Positions 7,787-32,000 of a stretch of DNA of 32,000 bases are shown here, one piece after another. The stretch is from assembly GCF_000015225.1 (NCBI RefSeq), contig NC_008698.1, forward strand, positions 1,650,001-1,682,000, in the 5' to 3' direction. The stretch is from Thermofilum pendens Hrk 5 (GTDB lineage: Archaea; Thermoproteota; Thermoprotei; Thermofilales; Thermofilaceae). The position numbers were made by a program, and so were the translations under genes. Positions within the stretch are counted from its first letter, which is position 1. Every line of letters starts with the position of its first letter. The notes beneath the pieces were generated by a model. The model did no database searches, was not told the origin of the DNA, and saw nothing but the letters and a program-made list of their open reading frames with translations.

Positions 7787-7792
7787 TCTTCT

Positions 7793-9883: not shown

Positions 9884-9972
9884 GCGTTTTAAACATTTTT
9901 AGTTATCGTATGCAAAAAAGGAATTCTTTCGCAAGTTCGAAAAGCGAATCCTTGGGCATCTCAGCACTACAG

Positions 9973-12199: not shown

Positions 12200-12337
12200 A
12201 AACAACTGTCTAATTAGCGCACATTATATGAATTTTTGCCCTGCTCCCCCGTCGTATGCACAGAAAGGCTTTACGCTCTTCTTCGTGCGCTTCATCATTG
12301 CCTCACTGTAATGATAGAGAACTTAGAGTTGTTCGCG

Positions 12338-12432
12338 CGCCGACGCAAACCCAGCTAGGCTCGTACAGGAGTACAGAAAACTGCTAGAAAAGCCACCAGC
12401 CCCACAACCCGGGCTACTCGGCGACGGAAAGC
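12338..12432 (+). repeat. Orphan copy of the wecB 3' region (matches 5144-5240)
   Basis: By-eye alignment shows 2 substitutions (GCC->GCT, synonymous; AAA->AGA, K->R in the wecB frame) and an A-run one base shorter. The copy is joined directly to the dehydrogenase fragment listed next. Confidence 0.9.
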
Positions 12433-12585
12433 TCGAAAGCGAATCCTTGGGCATCTCAGCACTACAGTTACTCGGTGTATATGCCTAAGCCGTAGTATTT
12501 GAAGCCGGCTTTGCTAGCCTTTACCGCGTCTATTATGTGCCTGCAGTCGATAACGACGCGACGCGCCATGGTCTCTCCCAACCGC
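12433..12585 (-). repeat. Orphan copy of the dehydrogenase 3' end plus 36 bp of its downstream flank (matches 9937-10090)
   Basis: Positions 12447-12585 are identical by eye to 9952-10090. The edge differs only by an A-run one base shorter. The fragment covers the last 39 codons and the stop of the dehydrogenase gene. Confidence 0.9.
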
Positions 12586-12792
12586 GCGCGTCCCGTAAAC
12601 ATCCTTAAATATATTTTTATGTAGGATTATTTTCGACAGGAAAAAGCTTGGTAAAATTAAAAATAGTAATAATGCTACAGGAATAGATGCCCCTAACTTA
12701 TATGCAGTTGAAAGAACATAAACGGCAACAAGTACCATTAAGATAGCAACTTCGATTGTCCGCTCTGACAAATTTTCACCCCTCGGAAACAT
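12514..12792 (-). CDS. Hypothetical small membrane protein (about 92 aa from the internal ATG)
   Basis: From MFPRGENLSERTIEV there are two hydrophobic segments (AILMVLVAVYVLSTA, IPVALLLFLILPSFFL). The C-terminal ~25 codons read into the duplicated dehydrogenase fragment, so the present end is probably not native. The N-terminal part of the 151-aa track ORF overlaps the GT4 gene out of frame and I discard it. Confidence 0.25.
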   Translation of the reverse strand: MFPRGENLSERTIEVAILMVLVAVYVLSTAYKLGASIPVALLLFLILPSFFLSKIILHKNIFKDVYGTRAVGRDHGASRRYRLQAHNRRGKG

Positions 12793-13984: not shown

Positions 13985-14146
13985 TCTTCTAGCCCCCTCT
14001 TGCTGAGGGTTGTAGGGGTAAATATTCTTAGAACCCCGACCGAGTGCCCCATCTTGGACCACTTCTCGGCAAAGAAGCCTACCCTCGCCCAAGCCGCGCC
14101 TGGGAACGGATTCGGGAAGCCGAGGAAAAGCAAAATTCTCATGCGA

Positions 14147-18710: not shown

Positions 18711-19499
18711 CTAGCGCAATGCTTCCCGGTTGCCGCCCAAGATCTTGGAGGCTTCGTCTAGCTCTTTGAGGGTGTTCAGCGGCAACCATGCGTGGTGGGG
18801 TACGGGGTATGCGTGTAGCCTGCGTTGCTCTGCGAGCAGGGGTAGCAACGTTGACTCGAATTCTACCGCGCTGGGCGAGTCCATGTCTACGACCTCTAGT
18901 AGTAGCTTTAGGGCTTGGGGCTCGAAGGCGTACAGCCCTATGCTCGCGTGTATCGGTAGTACCGGCTTCTCCTTGAAGCTTACAGCCATTCCCTCCGCGT
19001 CTATCTCGACCACGCCGTAGGGGAGCGCTAGCCCGAGTGTCACCGCTACGCTCGCCCACGCCCCCATCCTCCGCGCCGCCTCTACGTGGCTCGCGAGGAA
19101 CCTTAGCGGCAACGTGTCGTCTAGGTAGAGGTCGTCCGGGAAGACTACGAGCGCCCTCCTCTCCGGGTCCACGGCGCCCGTCTGCAGCGCGTGCTTCAGC
19201 GCCTTCCCTTTCCCCACTTTGGGTAGGGGTGGGTCCATCGATACCTTTACGTTTACTCCGAGCTTTTTCCCGGCTTCCCGCGCTTTCTCGGCTACGGGTT
19301 CCTGCCTTGTTAGGACTGTGAAGTCCTTGAAGCCGCACCTCGCGTAGTACTCGATGCAGTGCTCTAGGAGGGGTTTGCCGTTGAGTTCTAGGAGGGGCTT
19401 GGGCACTGGTACGAGCCCCATTCTTCTCCCTTCCCCGCCGGCCATTACTACTACCTGCGTCTCGGAGGCTTCTCTCGCTACCTGCTCGATGGCGTTCAC
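18711..19499 (-). CDS. Sugar-1-phosphate nucleotidyltransferase (NTP_transferase family)
   Basis: It has the N-terminal pyrophosphorylase loop VVVMAGGEGRRMG...PKPLLELNGKPLLEH and a central FPDDLY. The track start is a GTG and the exact start is uncertain. Sugar and nucleotide specificity cannot be determined. Confidence 0.85.
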   Translation of the reverse strand: MNAIEQVAREASETQVVVMAGGEGRRMGLVPVPKPLLELNGKPLLEHCIEYYARCGFKDFTVLTRQEPVAEKAREAGKKLGVNVKVSMDPPLPKVGKGKALKHALQTGAVDPERRALVVFPDDLYLDDTLPLRFLASHVEAARRMGAWASVAVTLGLALPYGVVEIDAEGMAVSFKEKPVLPIHASIGLYAFEPQALKLLLEVVDMDSPSAVEFESTLLPLLAEQRRLHAYPVPHHAWLPLNTLKELDEASKILGGNREALR

Positions 19500-19534
19500 G
19501 CCGTTAACCCTTGTACCTAAAGCGTATGCGGTGG

Positions 19535-20524
19535 TTATGGAAGTCGCCTAGAGTCGGCGTCTTTCTTGCTCGGTTGTTTTGTGGTGGCTTTTAGCTCGGC
19601 TTCGAGCCTTGTTAGTCGCTCTGTTATTCTGAGCTCCAGCCTTTTGAGGTAGAGGGACATTATCGCGTTGAGCAGGGCTACGAGGCCCACGCCTGTCCCC
19701 ACGATTGCTATTATGCCCCATACTTGGTGCTTGACTCCCTGTACTAGCCAGCGGTAGCCGACCCAGGCTGCCAGCACGAGTGATGGTATGAGTACGATTG
19801 AGGCTGCGGAGAAGAATAGGAATACGGGGTTGTAGCGGAGCGCGAGCCTGAACGCGTCGAGGACTATTCTCAGCCCGTGCCTCTTCCTGAGCTTGGGCTC
19901 GCCGACCCTCGGCCTGTACTCTATCGGTATCTCCCCGATTCTCCTCGTCGTGGACGCTACGTGAGCGGCTATCTCTACCTCCACGCTGAAGCCTTTGGAC
20001 TCGAACTGGACTTCCCTCGCTACCTCCGTCCTGACGAGGTACATCCCACTACACACGTCGGAGAGGTTTGTCCCGAAGAGAACGTTGAACGTCTCAGTGA
20101 TTACCCAGTTCCCGAACCTGTTGAGGAGTGGTATGTTCTCGCGCCCCCTAGTTCTTGCCCCTATGACTTCGTCTAGCCCCCTCTCCCTAGCCGTCCTCAG
20201 AAGCTCTGCGACGTGCCGCGCTGGGTACGTGTAGTCGCCGTCCATCACGACTATGTAGGGCGTTTCGACGTACCTGAGCGCGGTTCTAACGGCGTCCGCC
20301 TTGCCCCGGCCCTCCTGGAGCACGACCCTGGCCCCCTTCTCCGCGGCGACTTCCCTCGTCCTGTCCGTGCTTCCCCCGTCGACGACGAGTATGTTCGTCC
20401 ATCCCTCGCCTTTAAGCTCGTCTATCACGAGCCCTACCCCCCTCTCTTCTTTCAGCGTTGGGATGACTATCGTTACCTCGGAGGCCCAGGGGTTCGCGGG
20501 AGTGCTCGTCGCCCTAGCCTTCAC
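19535..20524 (-). CDS. GT2 polyprenyl/dolichyl-phosphate hexose synthase (Dpm1/GtrB-like) with two C-terminal TM helices
   Basis: Motifs are VTIVIPTLKEE, ILVVDGGSTDRT, and VVMDGDYTYP (DxD). The C-terminal hydrophobic pair is FLFFSAASIVLIPSLVLAAWV and VWGIIAIVGTGVGLVALLNAIM. This is the GtrB/DPM-synthase architecture. The start is a GTG. Confidence 0.85.
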   Translation of the reverse strand: MKARATSTPANPWASEVTIVIPTLKEERGVGLVIDELKGEGWTNILVVDGGSTDRTREVAAEKGARVVLQEGRGKADAVRTALRYVETPYIVVMDGDYTYPARHVAELLRTARERGLDEVIGARTRGRENIPLLNRFGNWVITETFNVLFGTNLSDVCSGMYLVRTEVAREVQFESKGFSVEVEIAAHVASTTRRIGEIPIEYRPRVGEPKLRKRHGLRIVLDAFRLALRYNPVFLFFSAASIVLIPSLVLAAWVGYRWLVQGVKHQVWGIIAIVGTGVGLVALLNAIMSLYLKRLELRITERLTRLEAELKATTKQPSKKDADSRRLP

Positions 20525-20924
20525 CCCTGTAGAATGGTGGTGTGTTTATCCAGGCTAGCCCTAGATGTAGTACTAGCTGGGGCCCCGCCTTCGAAAGCTC
20601 TTCTGCGACGGCGAGGGCCCCTATCTTCAGGGCTAGCTGTATCCTCTTGGAGAGCTGTTTTAGGCCCTCCTCGAAGGCCTTGAAGACCTTGGCCTTCTCG
20701 GGCCACACTTTCTCCAGGATCTTGAGTAGCTGTTCCTTTAGGAGGGGGCTCTTTATAGCCTTGAGCCTCCCGGCGAGCTTGAGGAGCGCTCTTTCCTCCG
20801 CGGAGAGCCTCCAGAAGGTTCCGAGCCTCAGCGCGCGCTTGTAGGCGGCGGAAACAAGCGATGGCGTCAGCGAGGGTACTGCAGGCGATGGAGGCTCTCC
20901 GCGCGCGCCCCTCAAGCGAGACAC
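20514..20924 (-). CDS. Small all-helical orphan protein (~136 aa), first gene behind a TATA-like box
   Basis: Only the C-terminal part of the 656-aa track ORF looks coding (SAAYKRALRLGTFWRLSAEERALLKLAGRLKAIKSPLLKEQLLKILEKVWPEKAKVFKAFEEGLKQLSKRIQLALKIG...WINTPPFYRGEG). The only in-frame starts are GTG 20924 and TTG 20915. TTTATTAT lies 24 nt upstream of the GTG. The stop overlaps the GT2 start by 11 nt. I recognise no family. Confidence 0.55.
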   Translation of the reverse strand: MSRLRGARGEPPSPAVPSLTPSLVSAAYKRALRLGTFWRLSAEERALLKLAGRLKAIKSPLLKEQLLKILEKVWPEKAKVFKAFEEGLKQLSKRIQLALKIGALAVAEELSKAGPQLVLHLGLAWINTPPFYRGEG

Positions 20925-20963
20925 CGCCTTTCTTAGTCGAAGAAAAAATAATAAAGCTTTTCT
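20821..20963. repeat. Direct repeat copy 1 (promoter plus first ~34 codons of the small gene)
   Basis: It aligns by eye with 28414-28557 in the same orientation, with 4 substitutions and a 1-nt indel. It ends exactly at the stop codon of the 479-aa membrane-protein gene (20963). Confidence 0.9.
20925..20962 (-). promoter_or_regulatory. TATA-like box for a leaderless transcript of the small gene and downstream operon
   Basis: The minus strand reads CTTTATTATTTTTTCTTCGACTAAGAAAGGCG-GTG. The TATA-like octamer corresponds to plus-strand 20948-20955, 24 nt from the GTG. Confidence 0.45.
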
Positions 20964-22402
20964 CAGCCTTGGTACTCGTAGACCGCTATTTCCCCGAATC
21001 TTTTCACTTCTTTGAAGCCTGGGGGTGGGTTTGGCATGTTGTACCAGCCTTTTCCCGCGACCCACCAGATCGTGTAGACCTTCGCGCCCGTGGCTGCCTC
21101 TCTGCGCGCTGCCCGCAGGATTTCTTCCGCGGTGTTGGGCCTGTACTGGTTCGGCGCTGAGAGCATGTGCTCGCCTACGCGTATTAGCTTCGAGTTTTTC
21201 GCGTATAGTGCCGCCCAGCTGTGGAAGGCTTCGTGTAGTACTAGGGTTTTGTTTCCGGGTAGTGTGTCTACCCACTTTACTGCCTGTATTGCGCTCGGGG
21301 TGTCGGATAGTGGTAGGGTGTTTTGGAGCATGGATGTCTGCATGTAGTGTTTGTAGATGTTCCAGTCTCCGAAGTACTTGTTGAACTGTTGCTCGGGGGG
21401 TAGGGCTATGTAGGTCGCGGTCATCGAGGCGTATACGGCTACGAGTGCGAGCGCGGCTTTCCTCGCGCGCCCGGGTTTTTCGAGGAGTTTTTCCAGCCCG
21501 GCGCCCGCCGCCAGGGATGCGGGGTAGTTTAGGAGTATCGCCCAGCGGAACCAGAGCACCGTTGTTCCTGTCAGGAAGGAGTACGTCATCGCGAGGCAGG
21601 TGGCTGTCCAGGCGAGCGTCCCCCTGTCTCTCAGCGTGCTTGCGCCGTAGGCTAGTAGGGGGAGGAGGGGTGCGTAGAGGTACGCTAGGAAGCCTGTCGC
21701 GTACGCTAGCATGTACGCTGGGTCTACCCCGGCGAGCCTCTCGGCGGGTACGGCCAGCGCCCCTGTCTCCGGGGTGTAGACCTGGTAGAGTAGGAGGGCG
21801 CCCGCCGGTAGCGCTGTGAAAGCCCTGAGGGCTTCCCTGGGGGTCTTCGAGGATAGGAGCCTTGCCGCCGCCACCGCGGCTAGTATCACTGTTATGAACT
21901 CGTGGGTCCAGCCTATGAGGAAGGCTAGCGCCGCCTGCGCGGCTGCGGCTGCGCGCCCGGGCTTCTTGTCGAGCTCCATGTAGGCTAGGAGCATCGCTGT
22001 TGCGAGCATTTGCCTGTGCATCTCCCAGGATATCCTGAGCCCCACGAAGTAGGTCGTTGAGATGAGGGCGGCCGCGAGGGAGGCTTTCTCGCCGAGCCCG
22101 GTTGACCTGGCGTAGCGGTAGACGGTGTAGCCTAGGAGCCCGTTGAGGATGGGTGCGAGGAGCTTGACCGCTAGGATGGGGTCTCCGAGGGCCTTGTATG
22201 CGAGCGTTACGATTAGGAAGTACAGGCTCGTCGTCTTGAAGAGCTGGGGGATGCCCATCGAGAGGAAAACCCCTTGGTAGGCGTTTACGGCGTATATGCC
22301 GACGGGGTCGAAGCCTACCGTGTAGGGCCATGAGAGGATTTCGGGGATCGTTCTTACGAGCGCCGGTATTAGTGCTGAGAGGACGGCGTTCCTCCTGCTC
22401 AT
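20963..22402 (-). CDS. Polytopic membrane protein with a C-terminal soluble domain; GT-C-like glycosyltransferase candidate, 479 aa
   Basis: About 10 or more hydrophobic segments span residues ~5-345, followed by a soluble tail of ~130 aa. It starts with ATG 3 nt after the upstream stop. It sits next to the Dol-P-hexose-synthase-like GT2. The functional call rests on architecture and context only. Confidence 0.6.
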   Translation of the reverse strand: MSRRNAVLSALIPALVRTIPEILSWPYTVGFDPVGIYAVNAYQGVFLSMGIPQLFKTTSLYFLIVTLAYKALGDPILAVKLLAPILNGLLGYTVYRYARSTGLGEKASLAAALISTTYFVGLRISWEMHRQMLATAMLLAYMELDKKPGRAAAAAQAALAFLIGWTHEFITVILAAVAAARLLSSKTPREALRAFTALPAGALLLYQVYTPETGALAVPAERLAGVDPAYMLAYATGFLAYLYAPLLPLLAYGASTLRDRGTLAWTATCLAMTYSFLTGTTVLWFRWAILLNYPASLAAGAGLEKLLEKPGRARKAALALVAVYASMTATYIALPPEQQFNKYFGDWNIYKHYMQTSMLQNTLPLSDTPSAIQAVKWVDTLPGNKTLVLHEAFHSWAALYAKNSKLIRVGEHMLSAPNQYRPNTAEEILRAARREAATGAKVYTIWWVAGKGWYNMPNPPPGFKEVKRFGEIAVYEYQG

Positions 22403-22405
22403 CGT

Positions 22406-24325
22406 CTATGCCTCTAGGTGTCTGGTGGTTGGGGGGATTTCTGGGTCTACTACTCCTTCGCCTTGCGCGGCGTTCACGGTCCATTCTCCTAGTAGTAGCT
22501 TTCCGTCGGGTGTGTAGGCTTGTAGGGTTATGTTTGCGGGGGGTATTCTCGGTAGTAGTGCGTGCCCCGTGGAGTTCGTCTTTGCGGTTGAGAGGGTTGT
22601 TCGCCCTAGCAGTGCTACTACGAGTATCCCGGTTGCGGGTTTTCCGTCGGGGGTTGTGAAGGCGACTGCTATTTTTCGGAGGTTTGCCTTGAGCGTCGCG
22701 TTGGTGTCGGAGTTTACGCTGATTTTTAGTGGCCCGGCTACTTCTAGCCCTGCGTAGATCGCGGTGAGCGTTGCTTCTCCTTCCACGTGTTTTACCTCGG
22801 CTTCTCCCTTGGCGTCGGTTTCTCCTGCTTTGAGCCCGTTTAGTAGTAGCGTTGCGCCGGGTACTGGGTCTCCGCAGGCGTCTACTACTCTTACTCTGAG
22901 GGTGTAGCCGGGGGGCTTGACTGTCACGGTGAGGGTTAGCGTCTCGTTGTGCGCTATCGTCGAGACTTTTACTGTGACGGTGTAGTTGCCGGGGGCTAGC
23001 CCTTGCCGCGCCGATACCTTTAGCCTCGCCGTTAGGTTGGCTTTCCCGGTGCTGGGCTCGACCTCAGCTGTTATCCCGGGTGGGGCTTCCGCGCTTAGGG
23101 TGATGGGTAGGGGTAGCTGGTGGGTTACGTTGAGCGTTATCGTCGCGTTTTCGCCTGGGTAGAGGGCTGGGACCGCTCCCGCCGTTACCGAGGGCTTGCT
23201 TGCTCTCTGCAGTGCGTACCTCGCGGCGCTCACTATCATGGCGTTCGTCTTGTCGGTTATCGCGTAGACGACGTTGCCGTTTTCGTCGACTCCCTCGTAG
23301 AAGCAGTTGGGCGTTTTAGCCTTCATCACGTACTCCGCTAGGAAGGCTGTGTAGTTGGTGTTCCAGATGGCGTGCATGCCTAGAGCCGCCTTGGCGTATA
23401 CTACGGGCGTCATGCTGAGCTTTCCGAGGGAGCCGCTCCACACGGTCCACGTCTCGCCCGTGTATATGTCGACTATCCACTCGTAGATGTAGTACGGGGG
23501 CGCGTTGACCTGACCCTCCGTGAACGCGGTGGGCTTACCCGTGGCGAGGTAGCGGTTTTCCTGCGCCTTGTAGACCTTGTACGCCCACTCGTAGAACTCG
23601 GGCGGGGGGTCTAGCTCGAAGATCGTGAGGAGTATCGGCTCCATCGTTACCTCCACGTAGGGTAGCCGGACCCCGTAGGCGTCGACAGTCCTCGTGTAGG
23701 GTAGCCTCCCGAGCATCGAGAGGGCCTTCATGACCTGGGGGGTGTTGAAGCCCCAGAGGTGGAAGCCGTAGGCGTAGTAGTACGAGTAGAAGCCGCTGTC
23801 CGGCACCGAGCCCGCGAAGGCCGAGAAGCCGTTCCTCTCGACGACGTAGTCCACGGTCGGCGCGAGCTCCGGGAAGCTCTTCTTCAGCCTGTAGAGGGCT
23901 ATCAGCAACCTCCCGGCGTCGCTGGGGTTCGAGGGCCCCGCATTCTCCGCCGGCATGCCCGTGTCCGAGCTGTACGCCGAGTACGGCACGCCGGAGGGGT
24001 GTAGCGGCCTCGTGGAGAGGAAGGCGAGCACTTTTTCGGCCCTGCTGATAGCCTCATCCCTGGATATCAGCCCGAGCCACGCCGCGTCGACTATCGCCGA
24101 GAGGTAGCTGCCGACGTCCCAGTCCGTCACGTAGTGCCAGGAGGGCGTCGCGTAGTTGATCCCCCTCTGGCTCAGCCCGAAGCCGGGGGAGAAGTAGCCC
24201 CACGCCGCCCTCGCTAGCTCCAGCCAGTCTACGGGCGGCTTCGCCTCGACGCTCGCCTGGCGCTGCGGGGGTACGAGCGTAGCCGCTACGAGCAGTACGA
24301 GGACCGCGAGAGCCGCTTTCTTCAC
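22406..24325 (-). CDS. Secreted protein: N-terminal helical (alpha/alpha)6-like glycoside-hydrolase-like domain plus Ig-like and CarboxypepD_reg-like beta domains, 639 aa
   Basis: It has a signal peptide (MKKAALAVLVLLVAATLVPP). The N-terminal domain (~400 aa) is aromatic-rich and helical (TDWDVGSYLSAIVDAAWLGLISRDEA, FYSYYYAYGFHLWGF), reminiscent of DUF3131/glucoamylase-like six-hairpin folds. The C-terminal segments APGNYTVTVKV and LRVRVVDACGDPVPGATLLLNG...TDAKGEAEV are typical of Ig-like and carboxypeptidase-regulatory-like domains. The GTG start is preceded by GGGTGAGGGG. Confidence 0.65.
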   Translation of the reverse strand: MKKAALAVLVLLVAATLVPPQRQASVEAKPPVDWLELARAAWGYFSPGFGLSQRGINYATPSWHYVTDWDVGSYLSAIVDAAWLGLISRDEAISRAEKVLAFLSTRPLHPSGVPYSAYSSDTGMPAENAGPSNPSDAGRLLIALYRLKKSFPELAPTVDYVVERNGFSAFAGSVPDSGFYSYYYAYGFHLWGFNTPQVMKALSMLGRLPYTRTVDAYGVRLPYVEVTMEPILLTIFELDPPPEFYEWAYKVYKAQENRYLATGKPTAFTEGQVNAPPYYIYEWIVDIYTGETWTVWSGSLGKLSMTPVVYAKAALGMHAIWNTNYTAFLAEYVMKAKTPNCFYEGVDENGNVVYAITDKTNAMIVSAARYALQRASKPSVTAGAVPALYPGENATITLNVTHQLPLPITLSAEAPPGITAEVEPSTGKANLTARLKVSARQGLAPGNYTVTVKVSTIAHNETLTLTVTVKPPGYTLRVRVVDACGDPVPGATLLLNGLKAGETDAKGEAEVKHVEGEATLTAIYAGLEVAGPLKISVNSDTNATLKANLRKIAVAFTTPDGKPATGILVVALLGRTTLSTAKTNSTGHALLPRIPPANITLQAYTPDGKLLLGEWTVNAAQGEGVVDPEIPPTTRHLEA

Positions 24326-24347
24326 GCGCCCCTCACCCGCCCCGTGC

Positions 24348-25610
24348 TTATATGGGCTTCGGAGTCCTTCTCCAGACGCGCGGCCTTCTCAGGATTATCT
24401 CGGCGAGGGCGTGGAGGGCGACCGCGGAGAGCGTGAACCAGTACGCGTAGATAACCGGGACCCAGGCTAGGTTCTTCGCGCTTACGGGCCTCTCGCTGAG
24501 CGCGAGGGCGACGCTGACCGAGAAGAGGGACACGGCGTTCAGCGCGGCGACGAGGGCGGCGGGTGTCGAGAAGTGGTTTACGTGGGGCAAAGCCGTCGAG
24601 GCGAGCCAGGCGGCCACCGCTAGGAGGCTGAGCGCCATCAGGTAGGGCCCCGCCGAGAGGATGGCGGCGTCCAGCCCCCTCCTGCCCGCGAGGGCGAGGC
24701 GCAGGTGCCTCGCGAATGCCTCCATGTACCCCCTATACCACCTGTTCCTCTGCACGGCGAGGCTCCTCAGCGAGGTCGGCGCCTCCTGCCAGGAGACGAC
24801 GTCGTTCGCGTACTTCACCCTGTAGCCCCTGGCGAGGAGGTCCATCGATAGCTCCAGGTCCTCCGCGAGGGCGTCCTCCCTCCACCCCCCGACCTCCTCG
24901 AGCGCGCTCCTCTTAACGAACTGGCAGCTCCCGGTGAGCGGTACGAAGAGCCCGAGCCTCTCCCTCCCGCGTATGAGCGCGTGGAACCAGGCCTTCTCCT
25001 CCTTGGAGGCTACCCTCGCGAGCACCGATTCGCGCTCGTTGAGTACCAGCGTCTTCCCCTGGACCGCGGCGACCCCCGGCTCCTCGAGGTGCTTCACGGC
25101 GCGCCTTATGGCGTCCCTCTCGGGGACGCTGTCCGCGTCGAACACCGCTACGACCTCCCCCGTCGCCTCCCTAAGCGCCCTGTTCAGCGCGGCGGGCTTC
25201 CCGCGGGGCTCCTCCTCCCTTATCAACCTGACCGCGCCCGGGTACCTTTCTCCGGCTCTCCGCACTATCTCCTCGACGTACCCGTCCGAGCTGGCGTCGA
25301 CGACTATCACTTCGAGCTTCTCCAGGGGGTAGTCCGAGGATAGGATAGCGTTGAGGCAACGCTCGACGCGCCTCCCCTCGTCCTTCGACGGCACTATGAC
25401 TGTCACCCTGGGAAGCCCGTTCCCCGGGTCGTCCCCGCTGCCCCGGGGGGCTAGTAGCCCGGCGACGATTATGGGGGCGTGGTAGGCGGACCACGCGAGT
25501 ATGCCCGCGAGGGTGAGGAGGGAGAGGGCGTCTAGAAGCAGGTAGAAGGCTTCCGGGAGCAATCCCGGAGGGGCTACGGCTCCGAGTAGCGCTGACGGCT
25601 CCGACGTCAT
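24348..25610 (-). CDS. Processive membrane-embedded GT2 polysaccharide synthase (BcsA/PgaC/NodC-like), 420 aa
   Basis: It has an N-terminal TM pair, then VTVIVPSKDE, VIVVDASSDG (D), VFDADS (DxD), TGSCQF, LAEDLELS (ED), and AVQRNRWYRG (Q-x-x-R-W), followed by 3-4 C-terminal TM helices. This is the complete motif set of processive beta-glycan synthases. Confidence 0.9.
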   Translation of the reverse strand: MTSEPSALLGAVAPPGLLPEAFYLLLDALSLLTLAGILAWSAYHAPIIVAGLLAPRGSGDDPGNGLPRVTVIVPSKDEGRRVERCLNAILSSDYPLEKLEVIVVDASSDGYVEEIVRRAGERYPGAVRLIREEEPRGKPAALNRALREATGEVVAVFDADSVPERDAIRRAVKHLEEPGVAAVQGKTLVLNERESVLARVASKEEKAWFHALIRGRERLGLFVPLTGSCQFVKRSALEEVGGWREDALAEDLELSMDLLARGYRVKYANDVVSWQEAPTSLRSLAVQRNRWYRGYMEAFARHLRLALAGRRGLDAAILSAGPYLMALSLLAVAAWLASTALPHVNHFSTPAALVAALNAVSLFSVSVALALSERPVSAKNLAWVPVIYAYWFTLSAVALHALAEIILRRPRVWRRTPKPI

Positions 25611-25642
25611 TGTCTCGAAACCTCGTTAAGCTTCTGCGCCAA

Positions 25643-25665
25643 GAACTTTTCTAAAATTTAAAAGT
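25643..25665. promoter_or_regulatory. Inverted repeat spanning the TATA-like box of the GT2 synthase promoter
   Basis: AACTTTT (25643-25649) and AAAAGTT (25659-25665) are perfect reverse complements separated by CTAAAATTT. They lie 33-55 nt upstream of ATG 25610 on the minus strand. A GGCTTT-GTC-AAAGCC hairpin at 25682-25696 plus a T-rich run could terminate the upstream gene. Confidence 0.3.
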
Positions 25666-25727
25666 TTTCGCTCGTTCGAGGGGCTTTGTCAAAGCCGACT
25701 AAAAGAGAGAAGCCTCGCCGAGCGCTG

Positions 25728-26939
25728 CTAAAGCTCGAATTCTATTACCGGGCCGCACTGCTTTTCGAGCTTCGCCGCCCTGCGCACCAGCAGTGCCACT
25801 GCCGCAGCGGAGGCGAGGATTATGGCTAGGAGGGCGAGCCCCGTCGTGACCCTCGGCGCTTCGCCCGGCGGAACCGCGGGGTACTCCCTGGTGGCGTTGC
25901 CCTCTATAAGCGCCACCGAGACGGGCTCCACGGGGTACGACGAGAGCAGGGGCCAGAATGCCTCGCCGAGGGTTAGGGAGCCCCTGCCGCCGGTGAGCGT
26001 GACGTTGTAGGTGTGGGGGCCTACCCTCACCGCGGCGTAGCCGTTTCCCCCGCCCTCCACCGATACCTCGTAGGCGTAGGGGAGGAAGCCGAGGAGGGGT
26101 TTCAGGTCGACGAGCTTCGCCGCGGGTACCTCGGCTCTGCCTATAGCCTTCTCCGAGTCTCCCAGCCTGAGCACGACGCGGGGCGATGCGCCTCCGACGC
26201 CTACCGTCGAGTATGCCTCGGCGACTACCCTGATGGAGGCTGGGGGCGACGCGTAGCCGTCCACGACTATCGAGCCGTTCTCCGCCTTGACGGAGCCGGA
26301 GAAGTTCGCCGCCTCCACGACCCTTAGGTTCTTCAGGGTTGCCCCGGCGACCTCAACCCTCGCCCCGCTGACCGCCAGCCTAGCCGTGGAGTTGCCGCCG
26401 AACACTAGGCGTACTTCCAGCTCGCCCGGCCTGCCGAGCGTTTTCGCCTCCCCGTCTACCCAGCCGTAAAGCCTCAGCTTCTTCACGAGGGTGGCGTTTC
26501 CCACCCCGAGCTTCAGGACGGCTTCCTCCGACTGGTTCAGCGCTGTGAGCCTGAGAGTTCCCGAGAGGGCTACGAGTACCGCTACCCTTCCGCCCGGCTC
26601 GACGCGCGGGGCCTTGAAGAGAGGGTCCTTGGAGGAGTTGTAGGAGCAGGGGCCGGGGGGAGTCTCTAGGAGCGGTGGCACGCTGATTGCGCACTGGAAG
26701 CTCTCGGGCGGCTCCACCGCTAGGTACAGCTTGTCCACGGCTACCTCCTTGTCCGCTGTGTTCACGAATACCGCGGCGAGCCCGCTCCGCGTCGTTGAAA
26801 GCTCTTTGAGGGCGAGCCCCGGCGGGTACACTGTGAGGTTGAGTAGGAGGGGGGTTTCAGGGCGCCGCGTGGATATCGCTAGTACTGGGGATGCTAGGAG
26901 TAGGGCGGCGAGCGCGGCTACCAGGTAGCGCTTCGACAC
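25728..26939 (-). CDS. Surface glycoprotein candidate with signal peptide and C-terminal TM anchor, 403 aa
   Basis: It has a signal-like N-terminus (LVAALAALLLASPVLA), 9 N-x-S/T sequons, and beta-rich V/G/A/L composition. The C-terminus is TTGLALLAIILASAAAVALLV followed by RRAAKLEK. The GTG start has GATAAATACT ~27 nt upstream, consistent with a leaderless transcript. I recognise no family. Confidence 0.7.
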   Translation of the reverse strand: MSKRYLVAALAALLLASPVLAISTRRPETPLLLNLTVYPPGLALKELSTTRSGLAAVFVNTADKEVAVDKLYLAVEPPESFQCAISVPPLLETPPGPCSYNSSKDPLFKAPRVEPGGRVAVLVALSGTLRLTALNQSEEAVLKLGVGNATLVKKLRLYGWVDGEAKTLGRPGELEVRLVFGGNSTARLAVSGARVEVAGATLKNLRVVEAANFSGSVKAENGSIVVDGYASPPASIRVVAEAYSTVGVGGASPRVVLRLGDSEKAIGRAEVPAAKLVDLKPLLGFLPYAYEVSVEGGGNGYAAVRVGPHTYNVTLTGGRGSLTLGEAFWPLLSSYPVEPVSVALIEGNATREYPAVPPGEAPRVTTGLALLAIILASAAAVALLVRRAAKLEKQCGPVIEFEL

Positions 26940-27059
26940 GGGGTGGGACTCGCGCGCAGTATTTATCGCTATCGGGTAGGGGGCTTCCCAGCCAGTCCTC
27001 TAGACAGCCTGGGAAACTGTTAAAGCAAAAAAGCATTAGTTTGCTTGAGAGCAGCGTTG

Positions 27060-27359
27060 CTACTGCTTTTCCTCTTTTTTCTCCTCGGCTTCTAGCTTCT
27101 TGAGCTCCTCCTCTATCTCCTTCTCTATCTCCTCTATCGGCTTAGGAGGGGGAGTAGTGGCAAGCGTGAAGCCTATCCAGGCGAGTATCCCGAGGACCCC
27201 GGCTACAGCAACGAAGCCCGTGAGCTGGAGTAGGAGGAGGGACCACTGGGTGAAGAAGAGGATCCACCCGTAGACCAGTATCCCGGCGATAGAGGCGAGC
27301 ATTATAGCCGTGCCTACGAGCTGGTCCTTGTTCATGGAACCGCCTCCCTTAACAGGCAT
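27060..27359 (-). CDS. Small 2-3 TM protein with an acidic/lysine-rich C-terminal tail, 99 aa (or 91 aa from the second ATG)
   Basis: It has hydrophobic segments (GTAIMLASIAGILVYGWILFF, LLLLQLTGFVAVAGVLGILAWIGF) and then a PPPKP linker and EEIEKEIEEELKKLEAEEKKEEKQ. A second ATG at 27335 is preceded by AAGGGAGGCGG. An A/T-rich box sits directly upstream and an oligo-T run (plus-strand A-run 27026-27032) lies downstream. Confidence 0.6.
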   Translation of the reverse strand: MPVKGGGSMNKDQLVGTAIMLASIAGILVYGWILFFTQWSLLLLQLTGFVAVAGVLGILAWIGFTLATTPPPKPIEEIEKEIEEELKKLEAEEKKEEKQ

Positions 27360-27406
27360 ACACTTTATTATATATTTCGCCGCCGCAAAAAGAAAATATT
27401 TTAAGG

Positions 27407-27700
27407 TTACTCCGGAGACGCTTCCGGCTTGCCGAGACGCTTCCTAGAGACGAAGTAGCCAATAGCGAAGCCCACCACTAAGCCTACCACGGTCCCGGCT
27501 ACGCCTACAAGCTGGGCGCGAGCCTCAGCCTCCGCTAGGCGGGACCTCGACTCGGAGAGCTGAGCCTCAAGGCTCGAAACCTGAGCCTTCAAAGCCGAGA
27601 GATCCGTCTGAGCGCTACTCAGCTTTACCTGCAGGCTTTTAACGTCTTCCTGCAACCTAGTAACGTTCTCCCTGTAGCTCTTCAGCTCCTCCTCCCTCAC
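27407..27700 (-). CDS. Small coiled-coil protein with a C-terminal TM helix (tail-anchor-like), 97 aa
   Basis: It has a heptad-like helical N-terminus (LQEDVKSLQVKLSSAQTDLSALKAQVSSLEAQLSESRSRLAEAEARA), then LVGVAGTVVGLVVGFAIGYFV and a basic tail (SRKRLGK). The GTG start has no obvious SD, so the start is uncertain. Confidence 0.55.
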   Translation of the reverse strand: MREEELKSYRENVTRLQEDVKSLQVKLSSAQTDLSALKAQVSSLEAQLSESRSRLAEAEARAQLVGVAGTVVGLVVGFAIGYFVSRKRLGKPEASPE

Positions 27701-27753
27701 CGCCGGGGCGTGAGGTGCCGCCCGAACCTGCCGGGAGCGGCTAACCCGCGCCT

Positions 27754-28038
27754 TTAGGCCTCGAGCCTAGCCAGGGTCCTCGAGTAGAGCCTCTTCAGCG
27801 CCTCCAGCAGGACCCTCCTCACGCCTTCCGGTATTACCTGCACGTCCTCGCGGGTCAAGCTCCCCAGAGACACTATCTCCAAGCCTATGACCTCTCTCCT
27901 CTCGTCGAGCTTCAGGACGATGTTGTCGTTCAGAGGCTCCGAGAAGCTCTCCCTTCCGGGCTCGTCCAGCCACAGGTCCAGGGTGTCGAGCTCCGGAGCG
28001 TAGTAGACGCGTACCTTCACGTCTGCCGCCTCCTCCAC
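27754..28038 (-). CDS. DUF2283-family protein (putative antitoxin partner)
   Basis: VKVRVYYAPELDTLDLWLDEP...NIVLKLDERREVIGLEIVSL matches the DUF2283 pattern (Y-D-x-E-x-D-x-L-x-I...G-I-E-I). The more likely start is GTG 28020, preceded by GGAGGAGG. The track start GTG 28038 is given as the outer bound. Confidence 0.75.
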   Translation of the reverse strand: MEEAADVKVRVYYAPELDTLDLWLDEPGRESFSEPLNDNIVLKLDERREVIGLEIVSLGSLTREDVQVIPEGVRRVLLEALKRLYSRTLARLEA

Positions 28039-28077
28039 ACCACCTCACCTCTGGCCGCTCTTTTAGTTAAATATCTT

Positions 28078-28350
28078 TTAGTTATAGGCCGTTATTATAA
28101 AACCCTCGCTATTCAAGTGCTTAACGACCACACAGATGAGCTTATCCATGTATGTGCCGTAGTACAGGTACACTCTGGGGTCGCGAGGGCTTCTCCTAAC
28201 CTCGAGGAGGTTCGCCAGAGCCTCTCTGACCACGCCCTCCAGGCCCTTCAGCGAGGGGTGCTTAATGCTGACAATGTACTCCCAGTACCCCCTGGAGACC
28301 CTAACTCTGACCCCTAGTTTACTGGTGACCTCGAAGAGCGGCTCGCGCAC
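28078..28350 (-). CDS. Small toxin-like protein (DUF4258 / RelE-barnase-superfamily-like), 90 aa
   Basis: It has the internal motif YWEYIVSIKHPSL and the C-terminal signature DPRVYLYYG...LICVVVKHLNSEGFIITAY. This resembles small toxins usually encoded just upstream of DUF2283 genes. The GTG start is preceded by GTGAGG. The family assignment comes from my memory of the motif pattern, not from a search. Confidence 0.55.
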   Translation of the reverse strand: MREPLFEVTSKLGVRVRVSRGYWEYIVSIKHPSLKGLEGVVREALANLLEVRRSPRDPRVYLYYGTYMDKLICVVVKHLNSEGFIITAYN

Positions 28351-28367
28351 CCGGCCTCACAGGGGTC

Positions 28368-28517
28368 TCAGCGTCCGCATGAGGAAATAGGTGTCACATA
28401 GATCACGCCGATCCCGAACCTCAGCGCGCGCTTGTAGGCGGCGGAAACCAGCGATGGCGTCAGCGATGGTACTGCAGGCGATGGAGGCTCTCCGCGCGCG
28501 CCCCTCAAGCAAGACAC
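28368..28517 (-). pseudogene. Truncated duplicate of the 5' end of the small gene 20514-20924 (49 codons)
   Basis: It has the same TATA-like box, GTG and first ~34 codons (VSCLRGARGEPPSPAVPSLTPSLVSAAYKRALR). It then diverges and stops at TGA 28368, 17 nt upstream of the toxin-like gene start. Confidence 0.5.
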
Positions 28518-28557
28518 CGCCTTTCTTAGTCGAAGAAAAAATTAATAAAGCTTTTCT
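28414..28557. repeat. Direct repeat copy 2 (see 20821-20963)
   Basis: By-eye alignment gives about 96 percent identity over 143/144 bp in the same orientation. Confidence 0.9.
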
Positions 28558-28752
28558 TTTTTAAAGCACTCTCGGGCAGAATATTTTATTCTTTTTATTG
28601 CCCGAAGATAACTACCTAAGAAGCAATGTCCCTCGAGCTCTGACGCAAGCATGTACTTCGTCAGCTCGCCTGGAGTACTGCCTATAACGTTCCCGTGCTC
28701 CATAGGACTCTTAACCCGCGCGCGAGATTTGCGCGCTTTTGGCTCATTGTTT

Positions 28753-29601
28753 CTACTCGCGTTGTCTGAATAGCTCTTCGTAGTACTCTTCGAGCCTGGG
28801 CTTCATGTCTAGGAACTGCTTTAGGACTTTGACTTCGTACTCGGCTCTCGCCTCCGAATCCCTGTCTAGAACCAGTACGCCCGTTGAGACTACCTCGTAG
28901 GCTAGCGTGAGTGGAGCTTCGTTTAGGTGTACGAGGTCCACGTCTAGGCCTAGCGCGTCTTCGAGCTCGTTTTTCAGCTCTACGAGGTGCTTCCAGGAGG
29001 CTTCGCCCCGCGTGTACACCGCTACGTCGATGTCGCTACGACAGCGGGCCTGACCCTTGGCGCGTGACCCGAATATATAGGCGAAGACTACGTTGCTCCT
29101 GTTGCTGAGCACCCTGGCGATTGTCTCCGCGTCTTTCCCGGCCTTTGGGGGGTCTACCCCTCTGTTTTCGGTGCTCCTGGCGATCTCGTAGACTATGTTT
29201 TCTAGCTCTTCGACTTCGCCTAAAGCCTCGGCTAGCTTGCCGTAGTCTATCCTGGCGTAGCCGTGGACGAGCACGTTCCTCAACCCTACCCACAGCTCGA
29301 GCTTTCCGGCGGACGCCGCGCTGAGCATGCCGGCTCCTCGAAGGATTCTGGCAACGTCGCGGTAGCTCTCGGGCTTGCCGAGCCTCAGCAAGGAGCATAG
29401 CCTCATCCCTGCATCGATTACGGCCTCGATCGCCAGGTGGAGGTACCTCTCGACAGCCCCTCTTACAACGTAGTCACCGGCTAGGGCTTCGGGAGAGGCG
29501 CGCCTTCTCAGCTCTTTGAGCAAGCCTATGTATTCCAGGGCGCGCGCCAGCCTCTCCTTAACTATCACACCGGTTACCCCCCTTCTCCTCCGCTTTCGCA
29601 A
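28753..29601 (-). CDS. Fused HEPN (HepT/DUF86-like) and minimal nucleotidyltransferase (MntA-like) protein, 282 aa
   Basis: The N-terminal half carries GLRNVLVHGY (R-x4-H followed by x-Y). The C-terminal half carries FGSRAKGQARCRSDIDV (exact G-S-x10-D-x-D) plus LDVDLV. It is a continuous ORF with no internal stop. The start is either TTG 29601 (track) or GTG 29568, and either one overlaps the upstream gene. Confidence 0.85.
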   Translation of the reverse strand: MRKRRRRGVTGVIVKERLARALEYIGLLKELRRRASPEALAGDYVVRGAVERYLHLAIEAVIDAGMRLCSLLRLGKPESYRDVARILRGAGMLSAASAGKLELWVGLRNVLVHGYARIDYGKLAEALGEVEELENIVYEIARSTENRGVDPPKAGKDAETIARVLSNRSNVVFAYIFGSRAKGQARCRSDIDVAVYTRGEASWKHLVELKNELEDALGLDVDLVHLNEAPLTLAYEVVSTGVLVLDRDSEARAEYEVKVLKQFLDMKPRLEEYYEELFRQRE

Positions 29602-30397
29602 GCCTCCTCCTCGTCCACCCCCTAACGAGCGCGGCGTAGAGGTGGAGCTTGTAGACCTCGTACTTGTCCCCGTGCTCCTCCACGGCCTTCCTGGCGAGCC
29701 TCAGGAAGTCCTCCGCCTCTTCCATCGTGAACTCGCCTGGATCCTTCTCCAGGTACTCCCTCAGCTTCTCCACCTCCTCCTTCGTTAGGGGGTTGGAGAG
29801 AAGGCTTAGCACGGACCTCAGCTCGGCGCGGACGACGAGCGCCGTCTTTTCCTTTATAACGCCCTCCGAGGCGAGGTAGTCTATGAGGAACTCCTGGTGA
29901 GACTCGAAGCCCTTGACTACCCTTGAGAGCCTAGATTCAACTTTCTCGAGCCCGTGCTCGACGCCTGCAAGCCTGGACTCCGCCCCCTCGAGCCTCCCTT
30001 CGACCCGCGATAGCCTCGCCTCGACGGCGTCCAGCCTTTCCCCCACGTCCCCCAGTGCTTTCTCCACGCCGTCAACCCTCCTCTCCAGCGCTTCGAGCCT
30101 CCCCTCTACCTTGCTGAGCCTTCCCTCCAGGTCGGCGAGCCTCCTCTCCGCCTTGGTAAGCCTCTCCTGCACTCCTCCAAGATTTTCCTCGACGCTTTCA
30201 AGCCTCTCCTCCACTTTGTCGAGCCTTCCCTCTACGCCTTCAAGCCTCTTTTCCACCCCTCCAAGTCTTTCCTCTACTCTGTCTAGCCTGGCGTTAATCT
30301 TCTCGAACTTCCTGCCGAGCCAGTAGGCCATCGAGGAGCTGGCAGCCGCTACGCTTATAACGGTCGAGAGGACGGCGAGCGCTACGGGCTCCGCCAA
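29558..30397 (-). CDS. N-terminally membrane-anchored coiled-coil protein with 18 tandem V-E-x-R-L-x-x heptads and a helical C-terminal domain, 279 aa
   Basis: It has an N-terminal hydrophobic helix (PVALAVLSTVISVAAASSSMAYWLG) followed by RKFEK. Residues ~34-161 are uninterrupted heptads (VEERLGG VEKRLEG VEGRLDK ...). A ~118-aa domain follows (SNPLTKEEVEKLREYLEKDPGEFTMEEAEDFLRLARKAVEEHG). The track start is a TTG. An alternative ATG at 30331 would remove the TM helix. Confidence 0.8.
   Translation of the reverse strand: MAEPVALAVLSTVISVAAASSSMAYWLGRKFEKINARLDRVEERLGGVEKRLEGVEGRLDKVEERLESVEENLGGVQERLTKAERRLADLEGRLSKVEGRLEALERRVDGVEKALGDVGERLDAVEARLSRVEGRLEGAESRLAGVEHGLEKVESRLSRVVKGFESHQEFLIDYLASEGVIKEKTALVVRAELRSVLSLLSNPLTKEEVEKLREYLEKDPGEFTMEEAEDFLRLARKAVEEHGDKYEVYKLHLYAALVRGWTRRRLAKAEEKGGNRCDS
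29915..30298 (-). repeat. 21-bp periodic coding repeat (heptad array) inside the coiled-coil gene
   Basis: The units are degenerate at the DNA level (GAG-x-CTC/CGC-rich). They correspond to 18 protein heptads, and the antisense frame gives a long S/L/P-rich artefact ORF (29913-30326, +). Confidence 0.8.
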
Positions 30398-30586
30398 CGC
30401 GCACCCCTGGAAAACAGGGGCTCAGCCTCATTATATCTGTTGCGGACACCGCCGTGCTGAAAGCCGGAGGAACAGCATTTAGCGGCGGTACGGGTCTGGG
30501 TAAACGGGGAAGCGAGAAATAACCAGCTGAGAACAATTTTGGAGGGTTGCCCGACACTGTCGTAGAGCTACGCGCTGGGCGGGCCT

Positions 30587-32000
30587 TCACTTCCCGGAGA
30601 GGTTCCTCGCCGCGCGCAGGAAGACTGCCTCGTAGCGGAGCACTAGCGATGCTAGGGGCTTTAGCGGTGTGCCGCGCAGGGCTTGCCCGAGGACTTCGAT
30701 ATCTCCCCCGTCGATGCAGCCGAAGAGGGGGGCGAGCGCCCCGTAGGCGAGGGCGTAGGCTGTAGCCGTCGCGGCTACGCGTAGGGCTGGGTGCACGTTG
30801 AGAAGCGCTAGGGGGGCTAGCGGGGCGAGCGCGGCTAGCGCCGCCGCGCATGTTCTGGTAGCGTGCAGGAAGTCTACCTCTGCCCCCACCCTGCGCGCTC
30901 TCCACACGCCGTATGCCGCCGAGGAGGCCGAGGAGGCTACGAGGGAGGCTACGAGCCCGTATAGCCCTAGCCTCTGCGTGAGGGGGGCGGCGAGCGGTAG
31001 GAGTACCGCGAGCCCGGCTAGCGAGGCTTCGAGGTTGGCCCTCGTGTCGCCTACCCCTTGGAAGAAGCTCGGCAGCGCCGCTGTCCCCAGCCCGGAGAGC
31101 AGGAGGGAGGCCGAGTACAGCGAGAGGTAGCCCGGCGCGAGCGCGTATTCCCGGCCGTAAACGAGGGCGACGAGGTCCCGGGACTCTACTGCCGCGTAGA
31201 CCCCGGCTGGGACGAGGATTAGCCCGGTGTAGCGCGCGGCGTAGCGGAAGAACCTCCCGGAGTCATCGCCGCTGAGCCTCGAGAACGCCGGGAGGAGGGA
31301 GAGGGAGATGGGGGCTACGAGTAGCTGGATGAGGGCGGCGAAGTTCATCGCTACCTTGAAGTTCCCCACCTCTACGTCCGTCGCGAACCAGGCGGCTACG
31401 GAGTTCTGGTATATCCCCGAGAGGGTTCCCAGGACGCTCGACGCGTACAGCGGTAGCCCGTAGCCCAGCAGGGGTTTCAGCTCGCCGGCGGGGGCTAGCG
31501 GGAGGCGGCCGAGCCTCCTGTAGAGAGCGGCGAGCCCCGAGGCGGCGGCTAAGGCGTAGCCTGCGACTAGCCCCGCGACCGCCCCAGGTACTCCGTAGGC
31601 CGCCGCGAGGGCTAGGGAGAGAACGCTCCTCGAAAGGTCGCGTATCACTGGTAGGGCCGCTAGGGACGCGGTGTCCCCCAGGCCTAGCAACGCGAAATAC
31701 GAGAAGTTCAGGGCGGAGTTGAGGAAGACTGTGGGTAGGGCTAGGAGGGTGAGCTGGACCATCTCGGCCCTGTTGAGCAGGAGGAGGGTGAGCCTCTCCG
31801 AGAGCAGCGCGCCTAGCGCCGTCGACACTAGCGCCGACGCCAGGGTGAAGGCGAGAGCAAGCCCTACGAGCCCCGCTACTCCCTCGCGGCCCCTGCGGGA
31901 TGCTTCGCGCGCGACGGCCGCCGATACTCCGAAGTCCGTGAATATGGAGAGCAGGGAGGCGACCGTAGTCGCGAGGGCGTACTTTCCGTAGCCCTCTGGC
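30587..32000 (-). CDS. MOP/Wzx-family polysaccharide flippase (Polysacc_synt-like), 5' end beyond the window
   Basis: The frame stays open to the window edge. My translation of 31829-31999 gives PEGYGKYALATTVASLLSIFTDFGVSAAVAREASR, a typical flippase N-terminal region. The protein is polytopic throughout (12 or more hydrophobic segments), so the GTG at 31828 in the track is not the real start. Confidence 0.8.
   Translation of the reverse strand, partial: PEGYGKYALATTVASLLSIFTDFGVSAAVAREASRRGREGVAGLVGLALAFTLASALVSTALGALLSERLTLLLLNRAEMVQLTLLALPTVFLNSALNFSYFALLGLGDTASLAALPVIRDLSRSVLSLALAAAYGVPGAVAGLVAGYALAAASGLAALYRRLGRLPLAPAGELKPLLGYGLPLYASSVLGTLSGIYQNSVAAWFATDVEVGNFKVAMNFAALIQLLVAPISLSLLPAFSRLSGDDSGRFFRYAARYTGLILVPAGVYAAVESRDLVALVYGREYALAPGYLSLYSASLLLSGLGTAALPSFFQGVGDTRANLEASLAGLAVLLPLAAPLTQRLGLYGLVASLVASSASSAAYGVWRARRVGAEVDFLHATRTCAAALAALAPLAPLALLNVHPALRVAATATAYALAYGALAPLFGCIDGGDIEVLGQALRGTPLKPLASLVLRYEAVFLRAARNLSGK

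Follow-up and report, generated by a model that had tools for sequence, protein, structure and literature searches.

In the genome of Thermofilum pendens Hrk 5, 143 bp consisting of a promoter and the first codons of a small gene are found twice, in the same orientation and 7.45 kb apart, and the DNA between them carries a toxin–antitoxin (TA)-like gene pair and a polysaccharide-synthesis module. How did the second copy arise, and what can the two copies do to the cassette that they bracket? These questions were addressed by computational analysis of the 32,000-nt stretch that holds the locus (NC_008698.1, positions 1,650,001 to 1,682,000), referred to here as the window; coordinates are those of the window unless a contig is named. 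The answer to which we assign a probability of roughly 0.6 is that copy 2 is the stump of a second, upstream paralogue of the small gene (A), kept similar to the downstream paralogue (B) by recombination, that its promoter is probably active and that the cassette can be deleted by homologous recombination. On the locus itself, nothing was found in a literature search.

The repeat and the small gene behind it

The two copies (copy 1, 20821–20963; copy 2, 28414–28557) align over 144 columns with 96.5% identity and are separated by four substitutions and one single-base indel (self-blastn of the window, E = 3.9e-62). The pair was recovered by MAFFT alignment, by a repeat finder run on the window and by self-blastn, which detects only three long repeat pairs in the 32 kb, this one included. 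With 7,450 bp between the copies (20964–28413), the start-to-start period is 7,593 bp. Read on the minus strand, the repeat unit starts with the A of the TGA stop codon of a 479-aa membrane-protein gene (20963), carries AGAAAAGCTTTATTA, which resembles a B recognition element (BRE) and TATA box, and then runs from a GTG at 20924 into the small gene 20514–20924, of which it covers 34.7 codons. The GTG lies about 27 nt past the centre of the BRE/TATA-like box, which is the geometry of leaderless archaeal mRNA. In copy 2, the promoter has one additional A beside the TATA box, and the open reading frame (ORF) closes after 49 codons, 17 nt ahead of a 90-aa toxin-like gene. An earlier, sequence-only reading of the window had described a direct 143-bp repeat with four substitutions and a 1-nt indel, and both alignment of the copies and blastn confirm it; its geometric details (the stop-codon boundary, the ~34 codons, the 49-codon ORF, the 17-nt gap and the 7450 bp) are correct throughout.

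Independent read sets contain the variants specific to each copy: the copy 1-specific bases are 100% identical in Logan contig L056 (SRR9438659), and the copy 2-specific bases are 100% identical in Logan contig L055 (SRR9438660), which covers part of copy 2. The repeat is therefore no assembly artefact of one record. A structured RNA in the repeat was considered and rejected, since no Rfam family was found in the window and the transcribed part of the repeat folds no better than shuffled sequences (z = +1.59).

Judged by its homologues, the small gene is a true gene, specific to the Thermofilaceae: its product has 52 homologues at 60–68% identity, and nearly all of those that carry a label are from Thermofilum or Thermofilaceae. 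Together with its neighbours, it matches proteins attributed to T. pendens Hrk 5 at 100% identity. The best-conserved part of the protein is the N-terminus encoded by the repeat (TPxLVSAAYKRALRxG). Its AlphaFold model is confidently all-helical (predicted local distance difference test, pLDDT, 82) and is resembled by no PDB structure, and no family library names the protein. A protein-database search for a second intact copy found no other T. pendens protein among the family matches, and it is on this protein search only that the genome-wide copy number in T. pendens is based.

Two positions of the small gene and recombination between them

What once stood at the place of copy 2 can be approached through the relatives of T. 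pendens. From context look-ups and a metagenome scan, 50-odd loci were collected, and 43 copies of the small gene were classified by tblastn and by their flanks into two positional types. Type A is recognised by its upstream 130 nt, by its 3' end and by a pair of genes, tox83 (DUF4258-like) and DUF2283, that follows immediately downstream. Eight full-length copies of this type were found in eight different metagenomes, in addition to a partial copy (L052); a fused HepT–Polbeta gene lies just upstream in seven of the eight, and the last (L033) was assigned by flank similarity only. Type B has other flanks and is followed by family-2 glycosyltransferase (GT2) glycosylation genes, either directly or past inserted cassettes. 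Both types are found together in six contigs, co-oriented and with A upstream of B, 6.7–18.5 kb apart as calculated from locus coordinates (7.2 kb in L001, 7.0 kb in L005, 9.6 kb in L025, about 6.7 kb in L045, 18.5 kb in Ga0334722_10000619 and 14.4 kb in Ga0080004_1148709). The cargo between A and B varies by locus and can include TA-like pairs, PaREP1, DUF7310, an ATPase and a 433-aa protein, or a DUF1616/MoxR/DUF58 cluster; in most relatives TA and defence genes are bracketed, whereas T. pendens has a four-gene polysaccharide module and small membrane proteins. The gene order of T. pendens fits this frame with one exception, the A position, where related genomes hold a full-length second copy (the eight type A copies) and T. 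pendens only the 143-bp stump. T. pendens shares with L005 and L001 a distance of 235 nt from the HepT–MntA stop to the start codon.

A third, divergent paralogue of the small gene (41–46% identity) is also present in L011 (5044–5430), L018 (7622–8011), L021 (624–1016) and L032 (527–922). In the last three it adjoins a PaREP1 gene and precedes another copy of the small gene; in L011 the order is reversed, with the divergent paralogue following the other copy, and no PaREP1 gene was detected. In L001, the last ~40 nt of the small gene and the sequence downstream of it recur at 12113–12218 and 12539–12579 (78–88% identity), between PIN-domain cassettes downstream of the B copy, a pattern suggesting that cassettes have also entered repeatedly at the 3' end of the gene.

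Recombination between the copies has left traces in the relatives. Over 102 nt (codons 8–41), the A and B copies of L005 share 100% identity, against 75% in the remainder; for A of L005 and its orthologue in L001, identity falls from 93% in the remainder to 72% within this patch. The chance of such an identical run is about 1e-10. With further conversion patches in L025 and L045, gene conversion between A and B is directly visible in the sequences. A different product is seen in L007, the only recombinant among the 43 copies. Up to its last ~80 nt, its single gene is A-type, as are the 120–130 nt upstream (88–100% identical to the A copy of L016, with 16–38% between the upstream part and that of B copies); from there through the downstream flank the sequence is B-type (80–94%). 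L007 lacks the A–B region, which spans 18.5 kb in a related contig. It is what one crossover between direct copies produces or, in reverse, a substrate for Campbell-type insertion. A single-copy 'empty site', for which the sequence-only reading had advised a search in relatives, does exist in L007, but as an A/B chimera from homologous recombination between full-length paralogues.

For T. pendens, these observations are consistent with the following scheme. Copy 1 is the native promoter and 5' end of the conserved Thermofilaceae gene, and copy 2 would be the remainder of the second, co-oriented paralogue, which in T. pendens would have lost everything past codon 34. The two copies are direct repeats, and homologous recombination can therefore convert one by the other or cross over between them. 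The recombination machinery would homogenise patches of the direct copies by gene conversion, an occasional crossover would loop out the intervening DNA as a circle and leave one chimeric gene, and the reverse reaction could re-insert the excised circle. The 96.5% identity over the retained 143 bp, including 39 bp of promoter, would reflect either a recent homogenisation or a recent cycle of excision and re-insertion. In this way the 7.45-kb TA and polysaccharide cassette could be lost as a 7,593-bp circle, and an intact small gene would remain beside HepT–MntA. The repeat, the arrangement of the paralogues and, in relatives, recombination between them are seen directly; the descent of copy 2 from paralogue A, the activity of its promoter and excision in T. 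pendens itself are what we infer. That the repeat could serve as a substrate for losing the exopolysaccharide module had been proposed before, and the conversion and deletion chimera of the relatives, as well as the contig L054 described below, speak for it; they do not extend to the regulated on/off surface variation that had been proposed along with it.

Copy 2 retains an intact TATA box in leaderless geometry, which probably fires and would transcribe the stump ORF together with the TA-like pair. In the 63-nt tail between copy 2 and the toxin-like gene, no convincing promoter or TATA box was found, only a GAGG motif resembling a Shine–Dalgarno sequence, and it is plausible that the copy 2 promoter supplies the pair. 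Promoter capture by the TA operon, another proposal of the sequence-only reading, is therefore tenable as to the supply; the promoter itself looks retained rather than captured, and in the relatives the DUF4258-like/DUF2283 pair directly follows the full-length upstream copy. Two origins of the tail were tried and rejected. An internal deletion that spared the last codons of the small gene ('TPISSCGR' versus 'NTPPFYRGEG') gives an alignment at the level of shuffles, and a native upstream region of the TA module finds no counterpart in L058 or L059, whose upstream regions do not resemble the tail.

The pair itself is a doubtful stabiliser of the cassette. The DUF2283 gene scores 30.4 bits against a Pfam cut-off of 23, the toxin-like gene matches DUF4258 weakly (E 0.006; 17.2 bits, under the cut-off of 25), and the pair has no PADLOC or NCBIfam match. 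Homologues of the toxin-like gene are always paired with DUF2283, and this two-gene module is found in unrelated genomic contexts. At the 3' end of the T. pendens gene, an imperfect 13-nt tandem duplication (28058–28085, TATAACTAAAAGA followed by TATTTAACTAAAAGA) shifts the frame and removes the C-terminal ~18 residues that six homologues conserve; the ancestral C-terminus, YLTKRAARGEVVWRRRQT and its stop, is still legible in another frame. The intact toxin gene of a type II TA pair is thus not what the 90-aa gene is, and because of the frameshift a stabilising role is doubtful, which weakens the earlier suggestion of an addiction module at the cassette edge.

A second assembly of T. pendens, GCA_054696865.1, contains the cassette in two forms. 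Its 1.82-Mb contig (1,815,852 bp) holds the normal locus, with identical proteins in consecutive accession order, and a separate contig of 7,470 bp (JBSLYP010000001.1; L054) carries the same cassette genes in circular permutation. L054 corresponds to window positions 24684 to 20948 (99.7%) followed by 28423 to 24685 (99.1%), and its two ends abut. It joins the 479-aa gene to the toxin-like gene at a junction inside repeat copies 1 and 2, where the first 16 nt of copy 1 are followed by the last ~9 nt of copy 2 (...GGCTGAGAAAAGCTTTATTAT joined to GAGGTTTGGGATCGG...). Chance cannot have placed both breakpoints within the 143-bp copies: either that culture contained the cassette in circular or tandem form, or the assembler or circulariser was misled by the repeat. 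A long target-site duplication by a 7,470-bp element was rejected, as it needs element ends that resemble the target flanks; the matches there (15/16 and 10/13) therefore indicate homology and not target-site duplication. The 1,815,852-bp contig is ~34 kb longer than the Hrk 5 chromosome, which we take to be 1,781,889 bp, and the extra DNA could reflect an integrated copy of the 31.5-kb plasmid. The closest relative seen is a strain ~97% identical to T. pendens, represented by a 2,737-bp contig (L057, SRR28178319) with the DUF3131 and membrane-protein genes, which reaches the first 10 nt of the repeat and then ends.

Several observations weigh against descent of copy 2 from A and its upkeep by recombination. 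Descent from A is based on synteny and not on sequence, because the relatives are only ~60% identical at the protein level. The HepT–MntA spacer of T. pendens does not align with that of the relatives despite its equal length, the TA-like pair is not detectably homologous to their tox83 pair, and no residual similarity to the small gene was detected past codon 34 of copy 2, local alignment of the 63-nt tail with the remainder of the gene being no better than shuffles. In the relatives, conversion tracts do not leave the coding part and A differs from B in its promoter, whereas in T. pendens the identity spans the promoter and ends abruptly at the neighbouring stop codon; judged by these tracts, simple gene conversion does not explain the identity through the promoter. 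The product expected of a simple crossover has 7,593 bp and an entire hybrid repeat; L054 is not that product, its junction lacking ~118 nt of the repeat interior. The 44 differences between L054 and the window are in purine-rich or homopolymer contexts, typical of a noisy, poorly polished long-read consensus, and the contig could be a by-product of the assembler or of circularisation.

Alternative histories of the cassette

The sequence-only reading had also proposed an att-like duplication upon insertion of the cassette, while pointing out that no integrase or transposase is visible. An integrative element of this kind, with the 143 bp as attL and attR of an integrase-mediated 7.45-kb insertion into the 5' end of the small gene, would account for direct repeats at a gene end and for the discrete set of genes enclosed by them, which has a TA-like pair on one side, and the circularly permuted contig would be in keeping with it. 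The attL-like and attR-like repeats are present, but the reading is close to refuted. Scans against Pfam and NCBIfam, covering all cassette ORFs and most other large ORFs of the window, uphold the lack of any integrase or transposase domain (on the plus strand of the cassette, no ORF exceeds 132 aa and the ORFs lie antisense to long genes), no tRNA was found, and there were no plasmid or virus matches in IMG/VR or PLSDB. A foreign origin of the cassette by composition was rejected, as its GC content at third codon positions (GC3) is 0.70–0.88 compared with 0.72–0.82 in the flanks. Linkage of the four-gene polysaccharide module to the small gene extends to the distant relative L004, the two-copy layout is old and shared, and the only circular-form sequence, L054, lacks ~118 nt of the 143-bp core expected of an attP. 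Of three features that define integrative elements, none was found here, and the system lies outside that class.

The compositionally foreign part of the window is a glycosyltransferase block at 5271–17618 and not the cassette, with GC3 of 0.37–0.60 versus 0.70–0.88 for 18711–31828. At 12338–12585, a 248-bp composite joins the 3' part of an Epimerase_2 gene (97.8%) directly to the 3' end of a UDP-glucose dehydrogenase gene and its downstream sequence (98.7%); the matching segments lie at 5144–5236 and 9933–10090, and in this main copy they are parted by 4.7 kb of lower GC3 (5237–9932) that encode an FkbM methyltransferase, a family-4 glycosyltransferase (GT4) and a 696-aa membrane protein. From its sequence, the composite seems to preserve a 'pre-insertion' junction between two convergent genes.

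These scars bear on an alternative that is unlikely, if not negligibly so, namely a recent, T. pendens-specific partial duplication that arose when a cassette from a ~3%-divergent strain was inserted into a single-copy site. The donor would be a circle bearing the small gene's 5' end along with its promoter, or else a linear fragment joined at one end through homology and at the other illegitimately, and the site beside HepT–MntA would be the original position of the only copy. Such an event would fit an identity of 96.5% that takes in the non-coding promoter and breaks off sharply at either end. Identity is similar in the window's two other repeat pairs (97.8% and 98.7%), which form the 248-bp junction beside a 4.7-kb low-GC insert; the glycosylation island carries other cassette-insertion scars, the TA-like pair at the edge belongs to a module that occurs in unrelated contexts too, and a single-copy arrangement exists in L007. 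The stump, however, matches the full-length A of eight metagenomes in its place, in the 235-nt spacing and in the kind of gene pair that follows, the GC3 of the cassette is no different from that of its flanks, and for a donor circle to have the codon-34 junction, the stump must have existed in some genome beforehand. Insertion also overlaps with the stump scheme, in that cycles of excision and re-insertion would look alike. Much the same location argument makes templated 'filler' DNA very unlikely, in which mending of a break next to the TA module would have used the small gene, 7.6 kb distant, as template for the 143 bp, without any relation to a former paralogue. The shortness of the piece, its abrupt ends and the lack of further homology are in favour, as is a second short composite piece in the window (12338–12585), yet the filler would have needed to land by chance at the exact place and spacing of the relatives' full-length copy.

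Whatever the origin of copy 2, selection might keep the repeats as a dedicated phase-variation switch for reversible loss and regain of the polysaccharide cassette. By its geometry, deletion would leave an intact small gene with its promoter, recombination between copies is documented in the relatives, and a circular or tandem form is possible in a culture-derived assembly. The idea nevertheless seems quite improbable: in most relatives the bracketed cargo is TA or defence genes, so that the architecture is not tied to polysaccharide function, an origin-less circle would be lost, which makes reversibility doubtful, and L054 may be an artefact.

Genes of the locus and comparison with known systems

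All genes of the locus are on the minus strand (Table 1). In the direction of transcription, a Polysacc_synt flippase-like gene is followed by the DUF7310 coiled-coil gene, the fused HepT–MntA, copy 2, the DUF4258-like and DUF2283 genes, two small membrane proteins, the 403-aa protein, the GT2, the DUF3131 protein, the 479-aa protein, copy 1 with the small gene, and an AglJ-like GT2.

Table 1. Repeat copies and genes of the T. pendens locus, in window coordinates.
Feature	Position	Strand	Remarks
AglJ-like dolichyl-phosphate hexose transferase (GT2)	19535..20524	-	directly downstream of small gene
Small gene, 136 aa, all-helical	20514..20924	-	at the downstream 'B' position of relatives; heads AglJ-like glycosylation genes
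Repeat copy 1	20821..20963	-	promoter ~20963-20941, GTG 20924, codons 1-34 of the intact small gene
479-aa polytopic membrane protein	20963..22402	-	UniRef name 'glycosyltransferase RgtA/B/C/D-like domain-containing'; no Pfam match
DUF3131 protein with CarboxypepD_reg domain, 639 aa	22406..24325	-	from domain scan
Family-2 glycosyltransferase	24348..25610	-	PgaC/IcaA- and cellulose-synthase-like, all matches under equivalog cut-offs
403-aa secreted/anchored protein	25728..26939	-	no Pfam match; 39% identical to first gene of the L004 four-gene module
99-aa small membrane protein	27060..27359	-	homologue near small gene in L002/L003
97-aa protein	27407..27700	-	coiled coil and C-terminal hydrophobic stretch (by eye a transmembrane helix)
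DUF2283 gene, 94 aa	27754..28038	-	partner of toxin-like gene
DUF4258-like toxin-like gene, 90 aa	28078..28350	-	C-terminus cut by frameshifting duplication
63-nt tail, copy 2 to toxin-like gene	28351..28413	-	GAGG motif 6 nt ahead of GTG
49-codon stump ORF	28368..28517	-	codons 1-34 from repeat, remainder unrelated
Repeat copy 2	28414..28557	-	copy 1-like promoter and codons 1-34; interpreted as stump of upstream ('A') paralogue
Fused HepT (HEPN RNase)-MntA (nucleotidyltransferase)	28753..29601	-	stop 235 nt ahead of stump GTG
DUF7310 coiled-coil protein	29558..30397	-	same family flanks upstream copy in relatives

HepT–MntA, a type VII TA system, usually takes the form of two genes. At this locus, HepT (toxin) and MntA (antitoxin) are contained in one 282-aa polypeptide with HepT N-terminal (NCBIfam MntA 102 bits and HepT 84 bits, cut-off 60; Pfam HepT-like and Polbeta). 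A fusion is found at the matching position in L001 (1776–2561) and L005 (8980–9765), 30% identical to the T. pendens protein. Within the DUF7310 gene, a 21-nt periodic repeat at 30071–30279 (five copies of an 83-nt register, 60–71% identity) reflects the heptad-rich coiled coil and is no separate DNA element.

The conspicuous repeat can be explained without a new mobile element, by a gene stump and ordinary homologous recombination between duplicates. More broadly, two copies of one small gene bracket a fast-changing island of defence and cell-surface genes across the family, and in the relatives gene conversion and pop-out deletion can be seen cleanly, as natural cases from hyperthermophilic archaea. 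The stump scheme predicts that T. pendens populations are heterogeneous for the polysaccharide-synthesis cassette, which if true bears on biofilm or host-association traits; T. pendens depends on other archaea for growth factors. A further step would be to regard the two co-oriented copies as an integrase-free 'landing pad' throughout the Thermofilaceae, with T. pendens cultures holding the cassette in both a chromosomal and a circular or tandem form. Taken as a whole this is speculative and probably wrong; if true, cargo would be looped out and re-inserted purely by homologous recombination, and surface polysaccharide would be heritably heterogeneous. The parts worth follow-up are the two-copy layout of the variable island and the odd contig L054, with which a public assembly holds either a real circle or an artefact caused by a repeat.

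Among known systems, the direct-repeat 'pop-out' (Campbell-type excision and integration) used for markerless deletion in Thermococcus, Sulfolobus and Haloferax offers a parallel in which co-oriented homologous segments flank a region and one crossover yields a circle and a hybrid copy, exactly the product seen in L007. The repeats of T. pendens and its relatives differ from it in being natural and in coming from a paralogous pair, reduced in T. pendens to the 143-bp stump, and activity in T. pendens is suggested only by L054. Archaeal elements of the SSV, pNOB8 and TKV types, which depend on integrases and leave att duplications in tRNA or protein genes, likewise have direct repeats at a gene end that bracket a gene set and an empty site in relatives; unlike them, the Thermofilum locus has no integrase or tRNA, its composition is native, its two-copy layout is ancient and the L054 junction lacks the repeat core. 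Cassettes are also exchanged at polysaccharide loci, for instance at pneumococcal cps between dexB and aliA or at O-antigen loci between galF and gnd, where variable surface-polysaccharide or other cargo lies between conserved recombining anchors and the content is mosaic with scars. Here the anchors are direct copies of the same gene, and therefore intramolecular deletion and gene conversion are possible in addition to allelic replacement.

Concerted evolution of duplicates by gene conversion, as in tufA/tufB, is matched by the 100% identical patches within paralogues that are otherwise ~75% identical, whereas T. pendens retains only a stump and its identity takes in the promoter. Chromosomal TA pairs stabilise cassette arrays and islands such as the Vibrio superintegrons, and in T. 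pendens a TA-like pair is also found at the edge of a deletable segment, although with neither attC nor IntI and with a toxin-like gene that is frameshifted at its 3' end. Set beside these systems, the T. pendens repeat itself is an instance of an already known mechanism, unusually well documented here.

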